Shown in pieces: positions 6,538 to 32,781 of a stretch of DNA of 32,781 bases (the first letter of the stretch is position 1; every line of letters starts with the position of its first letter). The translations under genes and the position numbers were made by a program. The stretch is from NCBI GenBank assembly GCA_946629155.1, contig CAMOXM010000003.1:1-32781 (forward strand), read 5' to 3'. The notes under the pieces are model-generated. The model made no database searches. It saw nothing but the letters and a program-made list of their open reading frames with translations, and was not told where the DNA came from. This stretch comes from an uncultured Spirochaetaceae bacterium (GTDB lineage Bacteria > Spirochaetota > Spirochaetia > Sphaerochaetales > Sphaerochaetaceae).

Positions 6538-7737
6538 ATGAAGGACAAAGTAACGATTGGAATGTACATCGATCAGCTTAGGGGTTATGATACTTCTAAA
6601 ATGTATCTGAACGATTTTTATCACACCTGGAAGGAAAGCGATGACGAGATCGCTGCTACCTTCACTGTGGCTGAGATTCTCAGGGGGCTTAGGGAAAACA
6701 ACATTTCCAGCAAGGTCTTCAAGTCGGGTCTTGGAATTTCGCTTTTCAGGGACAACTCGACTAGGACGAGGTTCAGCTTCGCTTCCGCTTGCAATCTTCT
6801 CGGACTCGAGGTTCAGGATTTGGATGAGGGCAAGAGCCAGATAGCGCACGGCGAGACCGTTAGGGAAACGGCCAACATGATTTCGTTCATGGCTGATGTC
6901 ATCGGAATCAGGGATGACATGTATATAGGAAAGGGCCACGCCTATATGAAGGAAGTCGCCGATGCTGTTCAACAAGGCTACAGGGATGGCGTTCTCGAGC
7001 AGAGGCCTACCCTTGTCAATCTTCAATGCGACATCGACCACCCGACTCAGACGATGGCTGATATGCTTCATGTCATCAATTATTTTGGCGGCGTCGATAA
7101 GCTCAAGGGAAAGAAAGTCGCTATGACTTGGGCATACAGTCCCTCTTATGGCAAACCGCTCTCTGTTCCGCAGGGCGTGATCGGCCTTTTCTCGAGGTTC
7201 GGCATGGAAGTGGTTCTCGCGCATCCGGAAGGCTACGACATCATGAAGGACGTCGAGGACGTCGCCAGATCCAACTCGCTCAAGAGCGGCGGTTCGTTCA
7301 GGAAAGTCAATTCGATGGAAGAGGCTTTCGAGGGTGCGGACATCGTTTACCCTAAGTCTTGGGCTCCGTATTCCATTATGGAGGAAAGGACAAGGCTTGT
7401 CGAAACGGGCGACAAGCAGGCGCTTGCCGACCTTGAAAGAAGGTGTCTTGAGAACAACGCCAGGTTCAAGAATTGGGAGTGCACCGAAGAGCTTATGGCT
7501 TCCACGAGGAACGGCAAGGCTCTCTATCTGCATTGTTTGCCCGCTGATATTACGGGTGTTTCATGCGAAGCCGGCGAGGTTTCCGCTTCTGTTTTCGACA
7601 GGTATAGGGATCCTCTTTACAAGCAGGCTTCTTTCAAGCCTTATATCATAGCCGCGATGATCTTCCTTTCGAAGTTCAAGAATCCTGCGGAAAAGCTACA
7701 GCAGCTGCTTGACGAGGCTAAGCCGAGAATCAAATAA
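6538..7737 (+). CDS. YgeW-like (knotted) carbamoyltransferase of the OTC/ATC superfamily
   Basis: Carbamoyl-phosphate motif STRTRFSF and an HCLP motif. Its 399-aa length, with N-terminal and internal extensions, is typical of YgeW-type enzymes rather than canonical OTC. Ribosome-binding site GAGGAG. Confidence 0.75.
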   Translation: MKDKVTIGMYIDQLRGYDTSKMYLNDFYHTWKESDDEIAATFTVAEILRGLRENNISSKVFKSGLGISLFRDNSTRTRFSFASACNLLGLEVQDLDEGKSQIAHGETVRETANMISFMADVIGIRDDMYIGKGHAYMKEVADAVQQGYRDGVLEQRPTLVNLQCDIDHPTQTMADMLHVINYFGGVDKLKGKKVAMTWAYSPSYGKPLSVPQGVIGLFSRFGMEVVLAHPEGYDIMKDVEDVARSNSLKSGGSFRKVNSMEEAFEGADIVYPKSWAPYSIMEERTRLVETGDKQALADLERRCLENNARFKNWECTEELMASTRNGKALYLHCLPADITGVSCEAGEVSASVFDRYRDPLYKQASFKPYIIAAMIFLSKFKNPAEKLQQLLDEAKPRIK

Positions 7738-7810
7738 GGATTGATTCGATTATGCGGAGCAAACCGTAAAGTGCCGTTTGCTGCGTATCCGCGCTGCTGC
7801 GTGGTTAGGG

Positions 7811-7839
7811 GGCGATGGGATTTTCCTGTCGCCTTTTTT
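7811..7839 (+). terminator. probable Rho-independent terminator
   Basis: Imperfect GC stem GGCGATGGGA/TTCCTGTCGCC followed by TTTTTT after the carbamoyltransferase stop. Confidence 0.4.
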
Positions 7840-7859
7840 ATTAGAGGTATTTTCAAAAT

Positions 7860-8010
7860 TCCTTTCTTCACGCTACTCGCTCTTCCAGCGTAAGCCGCAA
7901 GTCCTTCGGATTCACCTCCGGAACGGGCATATACACAAAGTATTAGCCCGTTCCGGAGGGGAACGCCCTACGTCGGAATAGACTTCGCATCGTTTTGAAA
8001 TCAATTTTGA
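7860..8010. repeat. diverged copy of the composite intergenic repeat family (CTTCAYGCTRCTYGCTCTTCC ... AGACTTCGCATCRTTTTGAAATCA) with an internal 11-bp-arm hairpin
   Basis: It shares both end blocks with the 13012 and 13215 copies. The internal hairpin is CCGGAACGGGC...GCCCGTTCCGG. Confidence 0.5.
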
Positions 8011-8070
8011 AAAGACCTAATTAGAGATGATTGCCTTGAGATAAATTTTGGGACAATCTCCCTCGTTCGG

Positions 8071-8101
8071 ATTTCTAGAAGCATTTGGGTTTTTAGAAGC
8101 G
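8071..8101. repeat. solo MITE terminal-repeat-like fragment (ATTTCTAGAAGCA...GTTTTTAGAAGCG)
   Basis: It matches the GTTTTTAGAAG terminal-repeat core of the MITE family; no second end is nearby. Confidence 0.35.
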
Positions 8102-8161
8102 TTCCGGATATGCTGGTTATCGGCTGGCTGATTCCGGAAGCGGTTTATTAGGAGAAGATAA

Positions 8162-9064
8162 ATGTTTGCGAGAAAGATGGCGGCATTGATGCTGCTGATG
8201 GTTTTGACTTGTTTTTCATGCGCCAAGAACGCTGAAGGCGCAAAGGGTTCGGCTGATGTCGAGGCGACAGGTTCCGAGAGTTCCGAATCCGGTTCCAGAC
8301 CAACCGATTATGTTCAAATAAACGACAATGCCTTGAAGGTTAAGAGAGCGAACGGCGAGACGGTTGAGATCGCGCCTTGCGCCCCGTCGAACACCTGCGA
8401 TGATGTCGCCTATGCCCTTGCGATGCAGATTATCGGCAATATCAAGGGCATCTATTCCGAGGTCTATGGCAGGGAGCAGAAAGCGAACCTTTCCGATTCC
8501 GAAATCGGTTCTTTCCTTCAGGGCTTGCTTGATGCGGAAAACGGCAGGGAGTTGGATTACGGATTCATGATGGATATTGGGAATCGTCTTCAGGCCGATG
8601 CGGATGCGAAAAGGGCCAAGAGCCGCGAAGCAGCCGAGAACTATTTCAAATCGTTGGAGGCTCGCGAAGACATAATCAAAACTGATTCGGGTCTTATGTA
8701 TGAGGTGATTGCCGAAGGCGACGGCAATGGCGGAATCGATAGCGAATCGAAAGTGAATGTAGATTATGTCATGTCGGTCTATCAGGAAGGCGCGCCTGAT
8801 AACAAAGTCGAGGCGGATAGCAATCAGGATATTGATTTCATCGTTTCCAATCTGATTCCCGGAGCTATCGAGGGTTTGAAGCTTATGAGGGAAGGCTCTG
8901 AGTATGTGTTCTATATAAATCCCGAACTCGGATACGGACCTGTTGCGGTAAGCCCCGTAATCGGACCGGATTCGTATCTCATATTCAAAGTGAAGGTCAA
9001 CAAGATACATCCGGACGAAACGCCTGAAGATAGTGAAGCGCCTTCTTCCGAACGGACTGAATAG
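8162..9064 (+). CDS. FKBP-type peptidyl-prolyl cis-trans isomerase lipoprotein (FkpA/Mip-like)
   Basis: Signal peptide with a lipobox-like LTCFSC; C-terminal FKBP domain (VNVDYVMSVYQEG...YVFYINPELGYGP). Confidence 0.75.
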   Translation: MFARKMAALMLLMVLTCFSCAKNAEGAKGSADVEATGSESSESGSRPTDYVQINDNALKVKRANGETVEIAPCAPSNTCDDVAYALAMQIIGNIKGIYSEVYGREQKANLSDSEIGSFLQGLLDAENGRELDYGFMMDIGNRLQADADAKRAKSREAAENYFKSLEAREDIIKTDSGLMYEVIAEGDGNGGIDSESKVNVDYVMSVYQEGAPDNKVEADSNQDIDFIVSNLIPGAIEGLKLMREGSEYVFYINPELGYGPVAVSPVIGPDSYLIFKVKVNKIHPDETPEDSEAPSSERTE

Positions 9065-22430: not shown

Positions 22431-24950
22431 ATGCAAGATAAAAGCGGGAAGCCCGATAAAATCATAGTCAGGGGCGCAAGAGTCCATAACCTCAAGAACA
22501 TAGATGTAGAAATACCGTTGAACAAGATCGTCGGCATAGCCGGCGTTTCAGGTTCGGGAAAATCCTCTTTGGCGCTTGGGGTGTTGTATGCTGAAGGTTC
22601 GAGAAGGTATTTGGAATCGCTTTCCACATACACCAGAAGGAGAATGACGCAGGCTGCGAAGGCGGATGTGGACGAGCTTCTATATGTTCCGGCTTCGCTT
22701 GCATTGCATCAAAGGCCTGCCGTGCCCAACATACGCTCGACCTTCGGAACTGGAACGGAATTGCTGAACAGCCTGAGATTGATGTTCTCACGCCTTTCAA
22801 GCCATAAATGCCCTAACGGTCATTATCTGGAGCCGTCTCTGAATGTCGCAGCGGAACGCGAATTGGCTTGTCCGGTTTGCGGCGAGCGATTTTACGCTCC
22901 TGGCGCAGAGGAGCTTGCCTTCAATTCCCAAGGGGCGTGCCCGAAATGCGATGGCGTAGGGACCGTGCGGACTGTTGATGAATCCACGCTTGTTCCAGAT
23001 GAAACCCTTACGATCGATGAAGGAGCCGTTCTGCCTTGGCAGACTCTCATGTGGTCTTTGATGAAGGACATAGCGCGCGAGCTGGGCGTCAGGACCGATG
23101 TGCCGTTCAACAAGCTTTCCAAGAAAGAGCGGGACATAGTCTTTTACGGCGAGCCTAAGAAGCATCACATGGTTTACCAGATGAAAACGGGCGACGCCGG
23201 TGAAATGGATTTCACCTACTACAATGCCATCTACACGGTTGAAAACGCCTTGTCGAGAGTCAAAGACGAAAAGGGGATGAAGCGCGTTGAGAAATTCCTG
23301 AAGGAAGGCGTATGCCCCGAATGCCATGGAACAAGGCTTTCCGAGAAAGCAAGAGGTCCCAGGTTGAGAGGCATCTCGCTTGATGAAGTCTGCAAGATGA
23401 CATTGTCGGATGCCATAGATTGGGTGCGGGGCGTGCCGTGTAGCTTGCCTTCGGAGATGAGAGCAATGGCGGAATCCATTTGCGAATCGTTTTTCACGGT
23501 GGCGAAAAGGCTGATTGATTTGGGCTTAGGCTATCTGACGCTTGATAGGGCTGCCTCGACGTTATCCACTGGCGAAAGGCAGAGGATGCAGTTGGCTCGT
23601 TCCGTCAGAAACAGGACGACGGGCGTTCTCTATGTTCTTGACGAGCCTTCGATCGGTTTGCATCCCGCGAACATCAAAGGTTTGAATGCGGTGATGCATG
23701 ACCTTGTGTCCGATGGAAATTCAGTAATTCTAGTGGATCACGATACGAACATTTTGTCCGAAGCCGATTGGATAATCGAATTGGGACCTGATTCGGGCAG
23801 AAACGGCGGTCATGTGATAAACGAGGGAACGATTGGCGATACCATAAGGAACGAACGTTCTAAAATCGCTCCGTTCTTGTCCGGCAAGGCAAACAGGACG
23901 ATTCGTCTGAAACTTGATGAGGATGTTTTCAAATATGGGGAAATATTCCTTTCAACAGATAGAATTCATACTGTCCGACCATTAGAAGCCAGAATTCCGA
24001 AAGGGAGGATGACTGTCGTAACGGGAGTTTCCGGATCGGGAAAGACGACATTCGTGTTGGAAAGCCTTGTTCCAGCCGTTCGAAGCAAGCTGTCAGGCGA
24101 CAAGCTGCCGCAGCACATAAAGGACATTCGCGCCGAGGGTATAAGGCAGATAAAGCTTATAGATGCGACGCCTATAGGGGTGAACATCCGTTCGACAGTC
24201 GCTACTTATGCGAATGTTCACGATGAATTGCGCAGAGTTTTTTCAAAGATGAAGAGTTCGGCTGACCTGAACTACAAGGCAGGCGACTTCTCATACAATA
24301 CAGGATGCTTGAGGTGCCCGACTTGCGATGGAGCGGGCAGCATAAGTCTTGATGTCCAATTCTTGCCTGATGTCGACATACCGTGTCCCGATTGCCATGG
24401 GTCGAGGTATTCCAAAGAATCCGAAAAGGTAAGATACGTTGTCAAAAGCGCCGTCAAGCCGAACGAGGAATACACGATTTCGCAGATAATGGCAATGGAT
24501 ATAAACAGCGCATTCGGAGTGTTGAAGGATATCGCCCCCATAAGGCAGAAACTGAAGGTGCTGAAGGATTTGGGCTTGGGTTATTTGACATTGGGCGAAG
24601 CTACGCCGAGCTTGTCCGGAGGGGAGGCGCAAAGGTTGAAGCTGGCTTCGGAGATGGGGAAAACGCAATCCGATGCGATATTCGTTTTCGACGAGCCTAC
24701 GATAGGACTTCATCCGCTTGATGTCCAATCCTTGCTTGCTGTGTTTCAAAGGCTTATTGATAGTGGTGCCACCGTCGTCGTCATCGAACATGACTTGGAT
24801 GTGATAGGAAACGCCGATTACATCATAGATATGGGTCCCGATGGCGGCGATAAAGGCGGTGAAATCGTCTATGCTGGGACTCCTGAGGGAATATGTGGAT
24901 GCGAGAGAAGCCAGACAGGGAAGTATTTGGGGATGTTTCTGTCTGAGTAG
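22431..24950 (+). CDS. UvrA paralog, class II (lacks UvrB-binding domain)
   Basis: N-terminal [36 protein letters not shown]; two ABC modules; zinc fingers CPVCG and CPKCDG. Only ~30 residues sit where canonical UvrA has the ~140-residue UvrB-binding domain. 839 aa. Confidence 0.8.
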
Positions 24951-25013: not shown

Positions 25014-25043
25014 TTGTCAATTATACATCTTTAGGAGTATAAT
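25014..25043 (+). promoter_or_regulatory. sigma70-like promoter TTGTCA-18-TATAAT before DUF3990 copy 1
   Basis: Hexamers read directly; AGGAG at 25033-25037; the ATG is at 25050. Confidence 0.35.
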
Positions 25044-25049
25044 AGTGTT

Positions 25050-25728
25050 ATGAAAAAGACAATCTATCATGGTTCGAACTCAATCATCGAGAAACCTGTT
25101 TTCGGATACGGAAAGGTTCGCAACGATTATGGATTGGGCTTTTATTGTACGGAAGAATTAGATATGGCAAAAGAGTGGGGCGTTTCAAAAAATGCCGGTG
25201 GATATGCCAACATTTACAAAATCGAAATGGACGGGCTTCTGTTTTTGATTTGAATTCTGATGAATGCACAATTCTTCATTGGCTTGTGATTCTTCTTGAG
25301 AACAGGACTTTTGATATCAGCTCCGCACTTGCGCAAGAGGCAAAAAGAGCTATCTTATTAAAAACTTTTCCACGCCTTATGAAGATTATGATATCATCAC
25401 TGGCTATCGTGCGGATGATAGTTATTTTTCGTTCGCCCAGGATTTTATCAATGGCACTATTTCCGTGCGGAACTTGGGCAATGCAATGAAATTGGGAAGG
25501 CTTGGGAATCAGTTTGTCTTAAAAAGCAGGAAGGCTTTTGAAGCAATTCACTTTGTCGGTTTCGAAGCGGCAGAATCTTCCGTATGGTTTGCAAGGAAAG
25601 AGAATAGAGACATGAGCGCGCGCCGGCAGTATCTCGATGGCGAGAGAAACAAGAGGCAGTCTGGTGATTTGTATATTGTCCAAATTCTGGAGGAGGGGAT
25701 TAAAGCCGATGATCCGCGCTTACGATAA
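25050..25728 (+). pseudogene. DUF3990-family gene, frameshifted (three reading-frame pieces)
   Basis: Pieces at 25050-25253, ~25236-25385 and ~25380-25728 each align to the intact paralog 27047-27745 (YHGS, DYGxGFYCT, GYRADDSYFS, ADDPR). Both shifts sit at homopolymer runs. Confidence 0.65.
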
Positions 25729-26338
25729 GAGCTATCTTTCAAAGGCTCAATCTTCACTCGCTTCAATGCTCGATTTCGCAATTTACGATTTGAAGCAGGA
25801 GCTTGAGGAATTTTATAAGAAATTTTTGGAATCAAACATATCGAAACGATTTGAATCAGGCGAATCATCGGTAATCGCCGGAAAGTCGGGTGTTGAGCTT
25901 GCACTTGAGGTTATGGGGGACGAGGGGCTTGCAAAGGAATATCGTCCGGTTGCGAATCGAAGTCCGGAGTATTGGACTGGATGGGCTCTCGCTTATTTTC
26001 AATGGCAGACCAATCTTACTTTCGGGCAGATAAATTCGTTCGTTCCGATTGCGGAAGTGCTTGCCATGTATAACCCTTATCACGAAATGGATATCTCCCA
26101 ATTTTGCGACAAGATGACGGAGCTTTACAATTCCAGGAAGCATGAAACGAATCTGAAAAGATACCGTCTTGCTGCTGGCCTTTCCCAAAACGAATTAGCC
26201 GAAGTGTCCGGCGTTCGAGTTCGAACGATTCAGCAATACGAGCAGAGGGTGAAAAACATAAACGCTGCTAGGGCGGAAAGCGTCATCGCCTTGTCGAAAG
26301 CCCTTAATTGCCCGGTCGAAATGCTGATGGAGGTGTAG
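25709..26338 (+). CDS. DUF3791-like N-domain fused to XRE-type HTH (partner of DUF3990)
   Basis: Paralog of 27711-28358 (MIRAY..., SPEYWTGWALAYFQW, C-terminal HTH LAAGLSQNELAEVSGVRVRTIQQYEQ). The start ATG sits inside GATGATCC, overlapping the upstream ORF end. Confidence 0.7.
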   Translation: MIRAYDKSYLSKAQSSLASMLDFAIYDLKQELEEFYKKFLESNISKRFESGESSVIAGKSGVELALEVMGDEGLAKEYRPVANRSPEYWTGWALAYFQWQTNLTFGQINSFVPIAEVLAMYNPYHEMDISQFCDKMTELYNSRKHETNLKRYRLAAGLSQNELAEVSGVRVRTIQQYEQRVKNINAARAESVIALSKALNCPVEMLMEV

Positions 26339-26385
26339 TGGAATAATTTTTGCGAAATCGGAACTGTGGTCTTCAGGAGCGCCCT

Positions 26386-26634
26386 TTAGATAGGTTTCGC
26401 AACTTTTTCGACATCGCTTGTCGTCATCTCTAGGTATTTCGCCACGCTGTAGAGCGGGATGCCGAGGCCGAATGGGTCGAAGCCGCAGAGGAACAGCACG
26501 TACGAATCGCGTATGCTCTGATAGTCGCCGCCCTTTGCGAGCATCCCGATGTCCATCAGGCTGGCCGACTCCAGCCAGCGCCTGAAGGCCGCGTTGTCCG
26601 CCTCTACCGCTTTGGCGAAGCCTGCCGGTTTCAA
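26386..26634 (-). CDS. small hypothetical ORF (82 aa), GC-rich and antisense to the neighbouring genes; possibly a gene remnant
   Basis: The only plausible minus-strand ORF in the window. Local GC is well above its flanks. Its start abuts MITE copy B. Confidence 0.3.
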   Translation of the reverse strand: MKPAGFAKAVEADNAAFRRWLESASLMDIGMLAKGGDYQSIRDSYVLFLCGFDPFGLGIPLYSVAKYLEMTTSDVEKVAKPI

Positions 26635-26640
26635 GTCATA

Positions 26641-26802
26641 AGGGCGCTTCTAAAAACCTGCTGTCTAGAGAGCGCCTGTGGATTTCGGAATCGGAAAAGC
26701 GTCCGGAAATCGCATGATACTGTCGTATTTTGCTATTTTCGGGCGATTTTCAGAGCCGAAAGGTATAGGCGAAATCGGACTCTGAGGGTTTTAGAAGTGC
26801 CT
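26641..26802 (-). repeat. MITE-like element copy B (162 bp), inverted relative to copy C
   Basis: Terminal repeats AGGGCGCTTCTAAAAAC ... GTTTTAGAAGTGCCT. The interior is ~85% identical to the reverse complement of 31415-31579. Confidence 0.75.
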
Positions 26803-26889
26803 ATAATATATCCTTTCACAACGCTTTTTTCAAGGTAAGCTGCGTCTCCTATATATTATGTCCCTGAAAATGCGTGATTGTCCCTAAAC

Positions 26890-26919
26890 TTGTCAAAATT
26901 TTTGGTGAGATAGTATTTA
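26890..26919 (+). promoter_or_regulatory. candidate promoter (TTGTCA-16-TAGTAT) with downstream small palindromes (ATCGTT-GT-AACGAT) in a ~130-nt leader before DUF3990 copy 2
   Basis: Hexamers and palindromes read directly. The palindromes are a possible operator for the HTH partner. Confidence 0.3.
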
Positions 26920-27046
26920 TTTGGATAGAGTATAGTAGAAAAAGGTTTTAATAAATCAGCACACCCCTCGACAAAGTATCGTTGTAACGATATAATAATG
27001 TAACGTCGATGAAAATTCTCACGATATTCGCAAAAGGAGAAATGGC

Positions 27047-27745
27047 ATGGCGATCATCAGGCTTTTTCATGGTTCGGATCATATTGTAAAAAGGCCGGAT
27101 TTATCTGCAGCCAGGCCGGCGAATGATTACGGCAAAGGATTCTATTGCACGTTTTCTTTGGAAATGGCGAAGGAGTGGGCATGCAAGAAGAACACCGACG
27201 GTTTTGCGAATGAGTATGCTTTTGACGACGAAGGACTTAGAATCTTGAATTTGCTTGACGGAAAGCATACCGTTCTTAATTGGATAGCCTTATTGCTGAA
27301 ACATCGTGTTTTTGTCATAAATGATGAGATTGCTTTGGACGCAAAGGACTATATCATAGATAATTTTTCCGTGGATACGACTGGATATGACGTTATCAAA
27401 GGGTACAGGGCGGATGATTCGTATTTTTCTTATGCGCAGTCATTTGTTCACAATGCATTGCCTTTGCGTTGCTTGGGCAGGGCTTTAAGACTTGGTGAGC
27501 TTGGAGAGCAAACGGCTCTTGTTTCGGAAAAGGCATTCGATCGGATCGAGTTCGTATTGGCAGAGCCGGTAAGCAAAGAGATTTATTATCCTAAGTTCGT
27601 CGCACGCGATACCAGTGCCCGAACAGCATATAGCGAAGAGATTAAGAGGGGCAGGTCTTATCGTGATGATATTTTCGTGATGGATATCATAAGGGGAGAA
27701 GTTAAGAGCGATGATCCGCGCATACAATGCATTATACTTAAGTGA
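27047..27745 (+). CDS. DUF3990-family protein (intact copy)
   Basis: 232 aa; conserved LFHGS, NDYGKGFYCT, GYRADDSYFSYAQ and SDDPR blocks shared with the degraded copy. Ribosome-binding site AAAGGAG. Confidence 0.75.
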   Translation: MAIIRLFHGSDHIVKRPDLSAARPANDYGKGFYCTFSLEMAKEWACKKNTDGFANEYAFDDEGLRILNLLDGKHTVLNWIALLLKHRVFVINDEIALDAKDYIIDNFSVDTTGYDVIKGYRADDSYFSYAQSFVHNALPLRCLGRALRLGELGEQTALVSEKAFDRIEFVLAEPVSKEIYYPKFVARDTSARTAYSEEIKRGRSYRDDIFVMDIIRGEVKSDDPRIQCIILK

Positions 27746-28358
27746 TGCTCAAATTTTTCTTGCCAATGCGTTTGATTATGCATTGAACGACTGCGGCCAG
27801 GAGCCGGATTGGTTCGGGTTTGTTTTCGCTCGCTCCGCCATATGCAGACGATTCGAAACGGGAAGCCCTGCAGTCATATCGGGCAAGTCGGGCAAAGAGG
27901 ACGTGAGAGAGCTGCTGCAGACGATTGTGCCCGATGAAGAATTTCCGCCGGCATCTTTTTCGCAGGAACGGTCGTCTGCTTATTGGGCTGGATGGGCGCT
28001 TGCATATTATCAGTGGTTTACAGTAAAACGATTTAAAGACATTTTCATCCGTGTTCCGCTTTCGGAAATCCTATTGATGCATAAGCTTTACCATGAGATG
28101 GATTTGACCAATTTCGTCGAGGAATTAGATAGGAGATATGATTCGGTTGTCTTGGAAACGAAATTGAAGAAGATACGGGAATCCAGAGGGCTATCGCAAG
28201 CACAGCTTGCTGAAATGTCTGGAGTGGCCAAGCGTTCCATACAGCTATATGAGCAGAGAGTAAACGATATAGACAAATCCCAAGGTCAAACTTTGTATAA
28301 GCTCTCAAGAGTGCTAGGCTGCGACATAGAGGATTTGCTGGAAAGCCCGGAAAAATAG
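27711..28358 (+). CDS. DUF3791-like N-domain fused to XRE-type HTH (partner of DUF3990)
   Basis: It overlaps the DUF3990 3' end by 35 nt. The C-terminal classic XRE HTH is LSQAQLAEMSGVAKRSIQLYEQ. Confidence 0.75.
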   Translation: MIRAYNALYLSDAQIFLANAFDYALNDCGQEPDWFGFVFARSAICRRFETGSPAVISGKSGKEDVRELLQTIVPDEEFPPASFSQERSSAYWAGWALAYYQWFTVKRFKDIFIRVPLSEILLMHKLYHEMDLTNFVEELDRRYDSVVLETKLKKIRESRGLSQAQLAEMSGVAKRSIQLYEQRVNDIDKSQGQTLYKLSRVLGCDIEDLLESPEK

Positions 28359-28978: not shown

Positions 28979-30295
28979 ATGTTTAGAAGAAAAATAGAAG
29001 AAAGGCTGTATGAGTATTATAAGAACCCGGATGATAGGGTTCTCATTGTGGAAGGCGCAAGGCAGGTCGGCAAGAGCTTTATAATCCGTCACACGGCAAA
29101 GAACAGCTTTGAGAATTTCATAGAAATAGATTTGAAGGCGGATCTCGAAGGCGACAGGCTTTTTGCAAATGCCAAAAGCACGCGCGACTTCTATTTGGCA
29201 TTGAGCTCGAAATATGGGCAGAGCCTTGGAGATTTTCAGAACACGATTGTTTTTTTGGATGAGATTCAGTTTTATCCGCATCTGATGACATTGCTCAAGG
29301 AGTTGAAGAAGGAGGATAGGTTTCGATACATAGCAAGCGGGTCTCTGTTGGGGGTGACGTTGAGACAGATTTTCATACCGATGGGCTCAATAGAGGAAGT
29401 CAGGATGTTTCCGCTTGATTTCGAGGAATTCCTTTGGGCTAACGGAGTAGGCGTTGACGTGGTTTCGTATTTGAGGAGATGTTTTGACGATGTTGCCGAA
29501 GTCGGCGAAGACATTCACTCTAGAATTCTGAGATTGTTCAAGGATTATCTCATATCGGGCGGGTTTCCGGATGCGGTGAAGGAATATGTGATAAACCAGA
29601 ATGTGCAACGGATGCGAAAGGTTCACGATGAAATATTTGCATACTATAGCGCGGATTGCTCTCAATACGACAATGAACACAGGCTGAAAATCATGCGAAT
29701 CTACGGCTCTCTGATCTCTAATATGCAAAACAAAGTGAAAAGGGTGCAGTTCAAGAAAATCGAGGGACTCGCAAATGCCAATGCCGAGAAATATGTCGAT
29801 GAATTCGATTATTTGGCATATTCGGGCGTCGCTTTGTTCACGCGCGCTGTCAGCAACCCCGTTTTTCCGCTTTCTGAAACTAGCAGTAAGAACCTGTTGA
29901 AATTGTATTACAACGATGTCGGGATTCTCACGAACCTTTTGTTTAAGAATAACATCAATGCAATCCTTGCCAATGACAAGGGCATAAACTTAGGTTGCGT
30001 CTATGAGACCGCCTGCGCATGCGAGCTCGCAAGCCATGGACACGAGCTTTTTTATTTCGACAGCAAAAAGACAGGCGAAGTCGATTTTCTGATAAATGAC
30101 TACGACAAGCTGTCCGCAGTTCCAATAGAGATAAAATCGGGCAATGATCAGAACAACTTCCGCGCCATACCTAAGCTGGTCGACAGAAACGGCAACTACA
30201 AGCTGTCCTGCGGTTATGTCTTCGGAAACAAGAATGTAGCTGTGAGGCAAAACGACCTTATCATCATGCCGGTTTACATGATTATGTTTGCGTAG
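28979..30295 (+). CDS. AAA+ ATPase with C-terminal DUF4143-like domain (COG1373-type)
   Basis: N-terminal Walker A EGARQVGKSF and Walker B-like IVFLDEIQ; a C-terminal restriction-endonuclease-like module, typical of this abundant family. Confidence 0.8.
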   Translation: MFRRKIEERLYEYYKNPDDRVLIVEGARQVGKSFIIRHTAKNSFENFIEIDLKADLEGDRLFANAKSTRDFYLALSSKYGQSLGDFQNTIVFLDEIQFYPHLMTLLKELKKEDRFRYIASGSLLGVTLRQIFIPMGSIEEVRMFPLDFEEFLWANGVGVDVVSYLRRCFDDVAEVGEDIHSRILRLFKDYLISGGFPDAVKEYVINQNVQRMRKVHDEIFAYYSADCSQYDNEHRLKIMRIYGSLISNMQNKVKRVQFKKIEGLANANAEKYVDEFDYLAYSGVALFTRAVSNPVFPLSETSSKNLLKLYYNDVGILTNLLFKNNINAILANDKGINLGCVYETACACELASHGHELFYFDSKKTGEVDFLINDYDKLSAVPIEIKSGNDQNNFRAIPKLVDRNGNYKLSCGYVFGNKNVAVRQNDLIIMPVYMIMFA

Positions 30296-30409
30296 GACAT
30301 TCTCGAAGCAGATGGTAATGTTGAAAAATCCATTCGGCTGCTGTATTGATCTGTCGTTTTGCTATCGAAATATTTTTCTATATATGCTATATTATTTGTG
30401 ATTGCTAAT

Positions 30410-31379
30410 ATGGAAATATCACTGCCTGAATTCATTGATAACATGCACAAGACGCTTAGTCAAAGCATCAAGGAGGAAATTAAGCCGGGAAGCAGGATTT
30501 CCGTGGCTGTGGCTTGTTTTTCGATTTATGCATATCGGGAATTGAAGAATGAACTAAAGGATATTGATGAATTGAGGTTTGTGTTCACTTCTCCGACCTT
30601 TATCGCGGATCGGATTAAGAAAGAAAAGCGCGAGTTCTATATTCCGCGTCTTAATCGCGAAAGAAGTCTTTACGGCACCGAGTTCGAAGTGAGATTGCGG
30701 AACGAGCTCAAGGCAATCGCAAAAGAATGTGCGGGATGGATTAGGAGAAAAGCTCGTTTCAAATCAAATTCAACTCAGCAGAACATGCCGTGCTTTATGA
30801 ATGTCGATGAAGAAACGGGAAGCAGCGGATTCTCGCATGGTCGATTTGTCGGAATTGTCTATGGATGATGATTATGATTTAGACGATCAGAACGCAAGCG
30901 ATATGTTTGAAATCGGAAAGAAGGTCAGAATCGATTTGAACGATATGGACTATGTCACATGGCTTGCGGATTTGAAACTCGATGCTGCAGTTCTCGATGG
31001 ACTTGAGGTTCTGACTTCTGAAATCACTCCGGAAAAAGATTCGAAGCTTCAAAAGCTGATTGGGATAATCAGGGGTAAAATAGAAAATCCAATCAACGAG
31101 GGCAATAGGAAGGTGATTATATTTTCCGCATTCGCCGATACTGTGGAGTATCTTTATGGGAATCTGAGTGGGTTCTTAAAGGAAAAGTACGGATTGAATA
31201 CCGCAATGGTCAGCGGCACTACGGAGGGGCGAAGCACTCTTGAAAAGTTCAGTTGCGACTTGAATGCCGTGCTTACTTATTTCTCGCCTCTTTCAAAGGA
31301 TAAGGATGTGATCTATCCAGGTGACACGAGGAGCATAGACATTCTTATTGCAACGGATTGCGAATGTGCAACAGGTTAA
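30410..31379 (+). pseudogene. remnant of a PLD-like nuclease + SNF2/ResIII-type helicase gene (N-terminal PLD piece and C-terminal helicase piece only; core ATPase domain missing)
   Basis: 30410-30868 encodes ...ISVAVACFSIYAYRELKNEL...LRFVFTSP...FSHGRFVGIVYG and then a stop. A different frame, 30801-31379, encodes the helicase C-domain (KVIIFSAFADTVEYLYGNL...YFSPLSKDKD...IDILIATDC) and stops just before MITE copy C. Confidence 0.55.
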
Positions 31380-31414
31380 ATTTGATGCGGACATAGGCCG
31401 TATCGACATAGTGA

Positions 31415-31579
31415 AGGGCGCTTCTAAAAACCTCAGAGCCCGATTTCACCTGATGCCTTTCGGGTCTGAAAATCGCCGGAAACCAGCAAAATATGACAGT
31501 ATTCCGCTGGTTTACGGCGATTTTCCGCCTCTGAAATCCGCAGGCGCTCTCTGGGCAGCAGGTTTTTAGAAGTGCCCTG
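31415..31579 (+). repeat. MITE-like element copy C (165 bp) with terminal repeats AGGGCGCTTCTAAAAAC / GTTTTTAGAAGTGCCCT and a long internal hairpin
   Basis: The terminal repeats are reverse complements with one mismatch. The internal repeat is GAAAATCGCCGGAAACCAGC / GCTGGTTTACGGCGATTTTC. Confidence 0.8.
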
Positions 31580-31591
31580 AATGAAATAAGC

Positions 31592-31951
31592 GTGAGAACG
31601 ATTCCTGCGATTCAGACGGGTGATAAGGTTCAAAGCATTTACGTTTTAGACGTGGCTATGAAAACGAAGAAATACGAGCCGAAAAATATAGAGCGAATCG
31701 CAAGGCTGATTCCACAAAATCTTGTTTTTGTTCTGCATTTTGAGGGAGAAATACAGCTTGCTGTCTTTTGCGAAAAGCTTTTTGCAACCGACTGGCTTTC
31801 TGAAAGCAGGGCAGTTATTCCGCTTGCGGGGTTGAATTTTGATGAGGTTTGGGAAAATATAATAAAAAGAACCGGCGGCGGAGAGTGGAATGGCTCTCTG
31901 ATCTTAAGCTTAGGTATCAGACCGCTCAGATTAAGGTTTCTGTTAGCGTAA
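31592..31951 (+). CDS. hypothetical ORF (119 aa, GTG start), probably a truncated gene fragment
   Basis: It starts immediately at the MITE boundary and has no start context. Confidence 0.3.
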   Translation: MRTIPAIQTGDKVQSIYVLDVAMKTKKYEPKNIERIARLIPQNLVFVLHFEGEIQLAVFCEKLFATDWLSESRAVIPLAGLNFDEVWENIIKRTGGGEWNGSLILSLGIRPLRLRFLLA

Positions 31952-31956
31952 ATTCC

Positions 31957-32225
31957 GAATTGATTAAGTTTTATTGGTCTCTTGGTGAAGATATTTTCTC
32001 CATGAAAAAAGAGAGCAAATGGGGGTGATGGATATTTTGAAAAAATAAGTAAGGATTTAAAAACGATACTCCCAAATACTAAAGGATTTTCACCTTCAAA
32101 CCTTAGGTATATAATGCGGTTTTACGAATTTTTCCTAATTTTTCCACAAGTTGTGGAAGAATTTGAAGGAAGCGGTCATTCGCATATTTCATTAATTCCT
32201 TGGGGTCATAAAAGGCAGGCGATTC
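31957..32225 (+). pseudogene. N-terminal fragment of a YhcG/DUF1016-like PD-(D/E)XK nuclease, frameshifted
   Basis: The N-terminal signature of that family is read across one frameshift near 32030: ELIKFYWSLGEDI...KWG / ISKDLKTILPNTKGFSPSNLRYIMRFYEFF...ISLIPWGH. The nuclease domain is absent. Confidence 0.5.
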
Positions 32226-32386
32226 TCACCGCAAATGCGCCCATAAGCAAGACATTGCGTCCTTGCAGGGAGGAGAGCGTTGATTTCGACAATACAGAGA
32301 ACCTCTACACAGAGGGCGACAACCTCGAAGTCTTGAAGCTTTTGCAGGAAACCTACCTCGGCAAAGTTAAGATGATTTATATAGAT
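32226..32386 (+). pseudogene. N-terminal fragment of a beta-class (Mod/N4-N6 type) DNA methyltransferase, truncated just before the DPPY motif
   Basis: ...ENLYTEGDNLEVLKLLQETYLGKVKMIYID follows in the same ORF as the YhcG fragment. AT-rich unrelated sequence comes next instead of DPPYN. Confidence 0.5.
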
Positions 32387-32597
32387 ATTAAGACCACGCA
32401 TATTGATACGGTTTTATGCCGAAATATAGCCTAAATTAGGCAAAAATAGGGTATTTATTGTAGTTTTTATAAATTTTTGGATTATTGTGTTTAGACTGGA
32501 TGATTAACTGATTATAACCTGAACACCCTTGATTTTAAATCGTTCGTTTGCAGACATAAAATTTACATTAAATGTAAAAAATGCTATCATTATAAAT

Positions 32598-32781
32598 ATG
32601 AATTTACATAAAAATATACCCAACGAATCTTATCACTTGAACATAGATGAAAGGGTAAATTTAGGTAGCTTTTATACGCCGCTAAAATATGTTGGTATTG
32701 CAGGTGCTTGGTTGAAGGAATATGGTGTAACTGATGACTATATTATATTTGATCCAAGTTGCGGATATGGTTCGTTTTTTA
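32598..32781 (+). CDS. gamma-class N6-adenine DNA methyltransferase (Eco57I/TaqI/HsdM-like), 3' end beyond window
   Basis: Motif X GSFYTP followed by motif I FDPSCGYGSFF. It is embedded in ~30% GC DNA, and the open frame runs to the window edge. Confidence 0.5.
   Translation, partial: MNLHKNIPNESYHLNIDERVNLGSFYTPLKYVGIAGAWLKEYGVTDDYIIFDPSCGYGSFF

Follow-up and report, generated by a model that had tools for sequence, protein, structure and literature searches.

Positions 25014-28358 of the window – the whole analysed stretch of 32,781 nucleotides (nt), contig CAMOXM010000003.1 of the uncultured Spirochaetaceae assembly GCA_946629155.1, from a rumen spirochaete – hold two co-directional two-gene units, in which a gene for a DUF3990 protein is followed by an overlapping gene for a partner protein ending in an XRE-type helix-turn-helix (HTH) domain. 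This module is a widespread, HTH-fused variant, lacking the NADAR component, of the catalogued candidate phage defence system PDC-M42. Structure prediction supports an ADP-ribosyltransferase (ART) fold of the H-Y-[EDQ] (PARP- and diphtheria-toxin-like) type for its DUF3990 protein, with the His and the Tyr conserved, and a toxin-antitoxin-like organisation is supported at sequence level by the gene overlap, the HTH partner, a conserved putative operator, a patchy distribution, and the apparent co-evolution of the two proteins. With moderate confidence, each unit is regarded as a type II toxin-antitoxin-like ART module, possibly one that acts in abortive-infection defence.

In module 1, a promoter (TTGTCA-18-TATAAT; 25014-25043, plus strand) precedes a DUF3990 pseudogene for a predicted ART-fold toxin (copy 1; 25050-25728, plus strand), delimited by three-frame reading and by tblastn against its counterpart in module 2; the partner gene (25709-26338, plus strand; 209 amino acids, aa) is intact and encodes an M42B-like N-terminal domain at residues ~1-140 and the XRE HTH at residues 149-204. 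In module 2, a promoter (TCGACA-17-TATAAT; 26968-26996, plus strand) precedes an intact DUF3990 gene for a predicted H-Y-[D/E] ART-fold toxin (copy 2; 27047-27745, plus strand; 232 aa) and a partner gene (27711-28358, plus strand; 215 aa) for an M42B-like, all-alpha N-terminal domain with the XRE HTH at residues 152-209. As an earlier note on this DNA had described, the bicistronic unit is thus present in two copies with separate promoters, each matching the sigma-70 consensus at 11 of 12 positions, and in both the partner starts at an ATG within GATGATCCGCG, in the 3'-terminal part of the DUF3990 gene; the genes overlap by 20 nt in module 1 (ATG at 25709) and by 35 nt in module 2 (ATG at 27711). 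The two modules are old paralogues and not the outcome of a recent duplication, the toxins being 42-47% identical and the partners 44%.

The DUF3990 protein and its predicted fold

Pfam places DUF3990 in its ADP-ribosyl clan (PMC7955679), and studies of type VI secretion system Rhs effectors in Serratia and Enterobacter describe the domain as a variable C-terminal toxin tip whose function they state as unknown (PMC4524185, PMC12165300, PMC10763514); these tips have adjacent immunity genes. PADLOC holds three DUF3990-based phage defence candidates (PDC), namely PDC-M10, PDC-M13 and PDC-M42; the PDC families were derived from genes embedded in BREX, DISARM or type I restriction-modification (RM) systems, and are explicitly presented as untested candidates (bioRxiv 10.1101/2024.01.29.577857). 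A literature search on DUF3990, DUF3791, PF13151 and PDC-M42 found no functional or experimental study. The earlier statement that the pair has no assigned function therefore holds for experimentally established function; it does not hold against the clan assignment, the Rhs toxin tip and the PADLOC listings, and it overstates how unrecognised the family is.

Two checks that the earlier note had proposed, profile searches of both proteins and a structure prediction of DUF3990, bear out its identification of the first gene (~230 aa) as DUF3990-type. Copy 2 matches Pfam PF13151 over the entire profile (139.7 bits, E 7.8e-41, positions 1-152 of 152; gathering threshold 32.2 bits) and the PADLOC M42A profile PDLC04641 nearly end to end (E 6.8e-40, positions 1-203 of 215). 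The AlphaFold2 model of the protein is confident and has the split beta-sheet of the ART fold; the ART folds returned for it (values in brackets) are those of PARP15 (8.6), the ParT RES toxin (8.3), tankyrase (8.1) and diphtheria toxin (8.0), followed by MbcT (7.4), Tpt1 (7.1) and Rhs ART toxins (6.0-6.4). In the comparison with viral models, ART-PolyVal domains come out as the nearest folds that have a name, in agreement with the weak matches of DUF3990 to the Pfam ART-PolyVal family. PDB sequences searched with both DUF3990 copies and a diverse DUF3990 profile gave no matches.

Residue conservation was read from nine aligned members, 26-42% identical, that include both window copies, PDC-M42A, PDC-M10A, and Bacteroides and Clostridium plasmid proteins. 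Invariant in all nine are H8, G9, P17, D27, G29, G31, F32, Y33, T35, A41, W44, Y57, W79, R87, G119, A122 and Q155. In the secondary structure of the model, H8-G9-S10 closes strand 1 (residues 4-10), Y33 lies in strand 2 (32-35), Y57 in strand 3, and D115 – Asp in eight members and Glu in the ninth – stands just before strand 5 (116-120). By sequence and model, H8, Y33 and D115 together with Y57 would stand where ARTs of the diphtheria-toxin/PARP type canonically have the H-Y-[EDQ] triad and the second Tyr. The (Y/F)HGS, GFYCT and GYRADDSYF blocks to which the note had drawn attention are found in both copies, and the ART resemblance that it saw in them stands for the fold, the His and the Tyr; its acidic residue, placed in GYRADDSYF, gives way to D/E115. 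Since D123 is often Asn (in most short members) and D124 is replaced by Ala in one member, D115 is probably the better catalytic candidate. A C-terminal extension of ~60 residues (170-232) is confined to the long DUF3990 forms that are paired with M42B-like proteins.

The partner protein, its putative operators and the spread of the pair

The partner is assigned to a family by its N-terminal domain. HTH_3 matches are limited to the last ~60 residues of both partners (3.4e-11 in module 1, 3.8e-11 in module 2); the ~145 residues before them are predicted to be all-alpha and find no match in Pfam even at E<=10. PADLOC PDC-M42B (PDLC04642) matches the module 1 partner at 1.5e-7 over profile positions 1-136 of 138, and the module 2 partner at 5.7e-4 over the whole profile; aligned against the stand-alone 138-aa M42B protein of a Coprobacillus locus (L023, below), the partner N-domain reaches an hhalign probability of 94.3% (E 1e-7, 130 columns), and both have the motifs RAY..YL, W.G, YQW and H[ED]. 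By these profile matches and motifs, the N-domain is classed with the PDC-M42B family and is here fused to an XRE HTH. The earlier description of the partner as a DUF3791-XRE fusion is accordingly retained for the HTH half and abandoned for the other: beyond the Pfam negative, hhalign against the DUF3791 protein of pBF9343 gives a probability of 0.3% (a single template sequence, so that very remote homology may escape), and no precomputed PF12668 match occurs among those listed for ~5,900 partner homologues. Genuine DUF3791 proteins, from pBF9343 and other plasmids, match PF12668 at 1e-18 to 1e-19 and belong to PDC-M13.

An exhaustive search with the N-domain yielded 1,055 cluster representatives at 50% identity, mostly of 210-226 aa (the HTH fusion), some of ~150 aa, and a few of 333-375 aa. 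The last group (P0413, P0418, P0497 and others) has an extra C-terminal region of ~150 aa after the HTH; this region finds no Pfam match, and the group does not consist of NADAR fusions. The MqsA family model TIGR03830 scores 30.5 and 24.6 bits with the two window partners, below its cut-off of 61.8 and over the HTH region only. For annotation, an "XRE family regulator" encoded downstream of DUF3990 would be a probable antitoxin.

The pair is conserved as a pair. The DUF3990 homologue search returned at least 7,999 clusters (at 90% identity), from Clostridia, Spirochaetes, Coriobacteriia and Bacteroidia, from plasmids and from Rhs effectors; a scan with one genome per species located the HTH-fused, NADAR-less form in at least 594 species, for the most part gut and rumen Clostridia, with Spirochaetes, Coriobacteriia, Erysipelotrichia and Bacteroidaceae also represented. 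Of the 80 loci kept, 78 have a partner homologue whose start falls within the 3' end of the DUF3990 gene, and the remaining two are contig ends (hence 78/78 informative loci). A Shine-Dalgarno-like (SD) GAGGAG precedes the partner ATG by ~10-15 nt within conserved toxin codons, and SD and ATG are both conserved. Two small, adjacent, co-directional and overlapping genes conserved as a pair are what type II toxin-antitoxin systems present, and the pairwise distances of toxin and partner are correlated (r = 0.89), supporting their co-evolution. No third gene recurs among the clustered flanking open reading frames (ORFs) of the 80 loci (at most 6/80); serine and tyrosine recombinases, AAA_14/DUF4143 ATPases, RM methylases and Fic genes are frequent neighbours, and the chromosomal surroundings of the module 1 relatives are unrelated. 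Since the pair is conserved while its contexts are unrelated and no third gene recurs, the unit appears to be an autonomous, horizontally mobile two-gene cassette.

Both promoters contain palindromes. In module 2, the 16-bp palindrome TATCGTTGTAACGATA (26977-26992; found in a search for inverted and direct repeats) lies between the -35 and -10 elements and overlaps the latter, with a related repeat at 27016-27027. The form TATC(A/G)TTGNAA(T/C)GATA recurs at the same site in relatives from many species, in nine loci with otherwise unrelated flanks (L008, L009, L036, L016, L017, L010, L011, L015 and L029), often with a second copy before the SD, and relatives from other species carry TTGACA...GATATAAT at the position equivalent to the module 2 promoter. 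In module 1, the palindrome ATTATAC-N10-GTATAAT (25020-25043) lies within the promoter; a different conserved block, TTGTYAATTATACATCTTTGGGAGTATAAT, with its own palindrome, is common to module 1-type loci, and this block is near-identical upstream of the intact relatives L088-L092, beyond which the upstream sequences are unrelated. Binding of these palindromes by a dimeric XRE repressor is the obvious reading, and they are treated here as putative operators. Since the start codon of module 1-type loci follows the conserved -10 hexamer by only 6 nt (25038-25052 and its equivalent in L088-L092), their mRNA may be leaderless or nearly so. An AGGAG in the spacer of the module 1-type promoter is also conserved.

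Among catalogued systems, PDC-M42 (DUF3990, M42B and NADAR) is the closest counterpart: it has in common with the window modules a long DUF3990 protein with the C-terminal extension, a homologous all-alpha M42B-like domain encoded next, and tight coupling of the genes. In contrast to PDC-M42, the window modules lack NADAR, their M42B-like domain is fused to an HTH, and a palindromic putative operator lies in the promoter; the window toxins are only ~35% identical to M42A. A tblastn search with the NADAR protein of the Coprobacillus metagenome-assembled genome (MAG) locus L023 finds no homolog in the window, nor in any of the 79 other loci, so that the module is an incomplete PDC-M42, a variant. 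In L023 itself, a full DUF3990-M42B-NADAR triad (6786-8335, with the NADAR gene at 7862-8335; Pfam NADAR 7e-50) stands ~0.5 kb downstream of a module-2-type pair, and in a Coriobacteriales MAG (L083; 9361-10292) a PDC-M10 pair stands ~4 kb from a module-2-type pair; DUF3990 cassette types cluster together at these two loci. The DUF3791-DUF3990 pairs of PDC-M13, found on Bacteroides and Clostridium plasmids such as pBF9343, likewise combine DUF3990 with a small helical protein, overlapping genes and a mobile or addiction context; yet their DUF3990 protein is short (159 aa) and without the inserted helix and the C-terminal extension, and the DUF3791 partner is encoded upstream, in the opposite order, has no HTH and shows no profile similarity to the window partner. 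These short plasmid pairs lie beside ParA, zeta, HipA and Fic genes.

Pfam finds no signatures of DarT, RES, macrodomain, DUF2384 or Tox-ART-HYD1 in the window proteins, and the RES-Xre combination (ParST/MbcTA) of a RES toxin with a DUF2384 Xre antitoxin is not what the modules encode. They differ from DarTG, from the RES-Xre systems ParST, MbcTA and NatRT, and from YarT-YbiA in that the toxin gene comes first, and in an antitoxin of another fold family with its domain order reversed, the presumed binding domain being N-terminal and the HTH C-terminal. MqsRA and HigBA resemble the modules in placing the toxin gene first and in the layout of the antitoxin, in which the toxin-binding domain (a presumed one in the modules) is N-terminal and an XRE HTH for promoter palindromes is C-terminal; the likeness is one of architecture only: their toxins are RNases where the window toxin has an ART fold, and the window partner lacks the zinc-ribbon CxxC of MqsA. 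Finally, the ART-PolyVal domains of polyvalent or ejected phage proteins and the C-terminal ART toxins of Rhs proteins are parts of secreted or injected giant proteins, whereas the window DUF3990 is a stand-alone, cytoplasmic protein with a cognate regulator.

Loss of the predicted toxin gene of module 1

As the earlier note had reported, copy 1 is broken by two frameshifts and the gene of its HTH partner is intact; copy 1 is read in frame 0, then 2, then 1. DNA alignment to intact 225-aa relatives resolves two lesions: a 1-nt deletion that turns TTT into TT (25237-25238), and a 2-nt insertion that extends an A-run from AAA to AAAAA (25342-25346). The first of the previously proposed sites (~25236) is thereby upheld; the second moves ~35 nt from the proposed ~25380 and is a two-base insertion. 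The first premature stop falls at 25251-25253, and the N-terminal fragment matches PF13151 with 58.6 bits (7.8e-16). The closest relatives of the module 1 partner are 82-85% identical and come from MAGs of Treponema and Lachnospiraceae; each of them is preceded by an intact DUF3990 gene for 225 aa that overlaps it by the same 20 nt, and both lesions are absent from these loci. Programmed frameshifting was considered and rejected, as these relatives encode the DUF3990 protein in one frame.

That the frameshifts are sequencing or assembly errors, which would leave both modules intact and remove the argument from decay, is very improbable. Both lesions do fall in short homopolymers (T2/3 and A3/5), and the read sets behind the assemblies that reproduce them may overlap and stem from one study. 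Contigs that match the window come from the Spirochaetaceae MAG GCA_003454065.1 and from several independent metagenome assemblies; both lesions recur in GCA_003454065.1 (NCBI) and ERZ28612947 (ENA), which come from different pipelines, and the second lesion also in ERZ1756109 and ERZ28612950. Two of these four assemblies are one single-nucleotide polymorphism away from the window and are therefore not copies of one sequence. A 2-nt insertion is atypical of short-read error, the ~25 kb of housekeeping genes upstream contain no frame breaks, and other gene fragments lie in the neighbourhood. Given the recurrence, the polymorphism and the unbroken upstream genes, the lesions are unlikely to be assembly errors and are taken as real. 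Two independent metagenome assemblies (L003 and L004) start exactly at 25305, between the two lesions, a shared start that suggests an assembly-graph branch; this branch could stem from strain heterogeneity at lesion 1.

Once its indels are repaired, the copy 1 gene is 78-81% identical to its intact relatives and keeps every motif, and its ratio of nonsynonymous to synonymous divergence (dN/dS) over the whole divergence is 0.05-0.07. By this sequence comparison, the inactivation of the toxin gene is recent, with decay limited to the two indels. The reading of module 1 as a decayed toxin with a retained antitoxin is kept in its essentials – the toxin gene is inactivated, the partner kept – and loses the implication of advanced decay. 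Relaxed selection on the pseudogene was also considered; dS to the nearest relatives is saturated, with dN/dS at the value just given, so that recent inactivation is all that can be claimed for copy 1.

Proposed mechanism, rival readings and the surrounding locus

The mechanism proposed for a type II toxin-antitoxin-like ART module is as follows. The long-form DUF3990 protein, an H-Y-[D/E] ART-fold enzyme with His8, Tyr33, Tyr57 and probably Asp115, would use nicotinamide adenine dinucleotide (NAD+) on an essential cellular or phage target. This target would most plausibly be a nucleic-acid base, since a NADAR hydrolase is part of the sister system PDC-M42; NADARs undo the ADP-ribosylation of guanine and cytosine and function as antitoxins for DarT1 and YarT (PMC11125620, PMC12945103), and the ART-NADAR combination YarT-YbiA is an experimentally shown toxin-antitoxin pair (PMC11125620). 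Translation of the partner would be coupled to that of the toxin through the 20-35-nt overlap and the SD inside the toxin gene. The M42B-like N-domain of the partner would bind and block the toxin, probably via the ~60-residue C-terminal extension, a plausible docking surface since it occurs only in the long forms paired with M42B-like proteins; repression of the operon would come from the XRE HTH, bound to the 16-bp palindrome in the promoter. In module 1, the two recent indels would have silenced the toxin and left partner and promoter in place as an orphan antitoxin or repressor. Toxicity, neutralisation by binding, autorepression and the target are the steps that we infer; toxicity has indirect backing in that DUF3990 serves as a toxin tip of Rhs effectors, that its short forms occur in a plasmid addiction context, and that module 1 has lost the toxin and kept the partner. 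The earlier proposal of a candidate toxin-antitoxin-like system is in this way carried forward for its ART resemblance and its toxin-antitoxin-like logic, and corrected in the DUF3791 label and in the acidic residue, which was probably wrong.

A more specific proposal is put forward only tentatively: the long DUF3990 proteins would be new ARTs of nucleic-acid bases (guanine or cytosine, in DNA or RNA), to which the NADAR of the sister system points, and the M42B-like domain an undescribed antitoxin fold that blocks the active site, its HTH coupling neutralisation to operator binding. If so, a toxin-antitoxin or abortive-infection defence family without any reversing hydrolase would be very widespread in gut and rumen. 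Toxin-antitoxin and defence systems that act by ADP-ribosylation (DarTG, RES-Xre, YarT-YbiA) are under active study. To our knowledge, every new ART family studied so far has led to new target chemistry. The module offers a minimal two-gene system with defined candidate residues (H8, Y33, Y57, D115) and a candidate operator, TATCGTTGTAACGATA, and its NADAR-bearing sister system is a natural probe of the modification.

Several points weigh against a toxin-antitoxin-like ART module. Toxicity, NAD+ binding and toxin-partner interaction are predictions for this module, and the catalytic triad is assigned from sequence and secondary-structure order only. The partner N-domain has no relative of solved structure among the matches listed and no known mechanism; since M42B stands beside a NADAR in the PDC-M42 triad, its role may be that of an adaptor or regulator and not of the neutraliser. 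The PADLOC PDC systems are candidates that have had no test. The two indels, being confined to one copy, are a single event, compatible with the neutral loss of any dispensable gene in a decaying island. In another reading, DUF3990 would be no toxin but a regulated, NAD+-dependent enzyme of modification or repair, or else a pseudo-ART without activity, and the partner its dedicated transcription factor with a ligand-sensing N-domain, for whose toxin-binding role no precedent is known. This alternative is considered improbable: strict conservation of the His, Tyr and acidic positions sets the family apart from pseudo-ARTs; DUF3990 is in use as an Rhs toxin tip next to immunity genes; and the strict overlap, the co-evolution, the plasmid addiction context, the patchy cross-phylum spread and the linkage to NADAR fit conflict systems better.

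A primarily anti-phage role, the main alternative, is rather doubtful as well, if less so; it is largely compatible with the toxin-antitoxin-like model, from which it differs mainly in biological role. The module would then be an HTH-fused, two-gene PDC-M42 variant in which infection frees or activates the ART, which then modifies nucleic acid of the phage or the host by ADP-ribosylation, in the manner of DarT. The close match of DUF3990 to PDC-M42A and that of the partner to PDC-M42B are consistent with this role, as are the definition of the PDC families by their embedding in BREX, DISARM and type I RM systems, and the position of the window modules next to a PDC-S01 ATPase and the remnants of an SNF2/DrmD helicase and a type III methyltransferase; in other species, the pair repeatedly has type I RM-like methylases and AAA_14/DUF4143 ATPases in its vicinity. 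DarTG is reported to be a toxin-antitoxin pair and a defence system at once. On the other hand, PDC-M42 itself is a candidate, the window has no NADAR component, the neighbours at most of the 80 loci are ordinary chromosomal genes, and the short DUF3990 pairs stand beside plasmid partition genes, a classic addiction context. A type II toxin-antitoxin-like module with a possible defence function remains the preferred reading.

Within the window, the two modules are sited between a UvrA paralogue (22431-24950; 839 aa), directly 5' of module 1, and an AAA_14/DUF4143 ATPase (28979-30295), 3' of module 2. No tRNA genes or integration signatures were found within the window. The UvrA paralogue matches the PADLOC MADS profiles mad3 (1.1e-64) and mad8 (4.1e-27), which may reflect only shared ABC-ATPase domains. 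Downstream, 28979-32781 looks, from its sequence, like a decaying defence island: the ATPase is intact and of PDC-S01 type (PADLOC 2e-148), and is followed by a SNF2/DrmD-like helicase fragment spread over two frames (30359-30868 and 30801-31379), a DUF4391 gene (31592-31951), a DUF1016_N fragment (~31849-32028), and a type III methyltransferase fragment of 106 aa (32114-32434). Between the modules lies a minus-strand ORF of 82 aa (26386-26634) that matches no family and exceeds its surroundings in G+C content; it is flanked by 19-nt inverted repeats (26368-26386 and 26640-26658) that are 84% complementary, and the stretch as a whole (26368-26658) could be what remains of a gene, or a small element that was inserted here.

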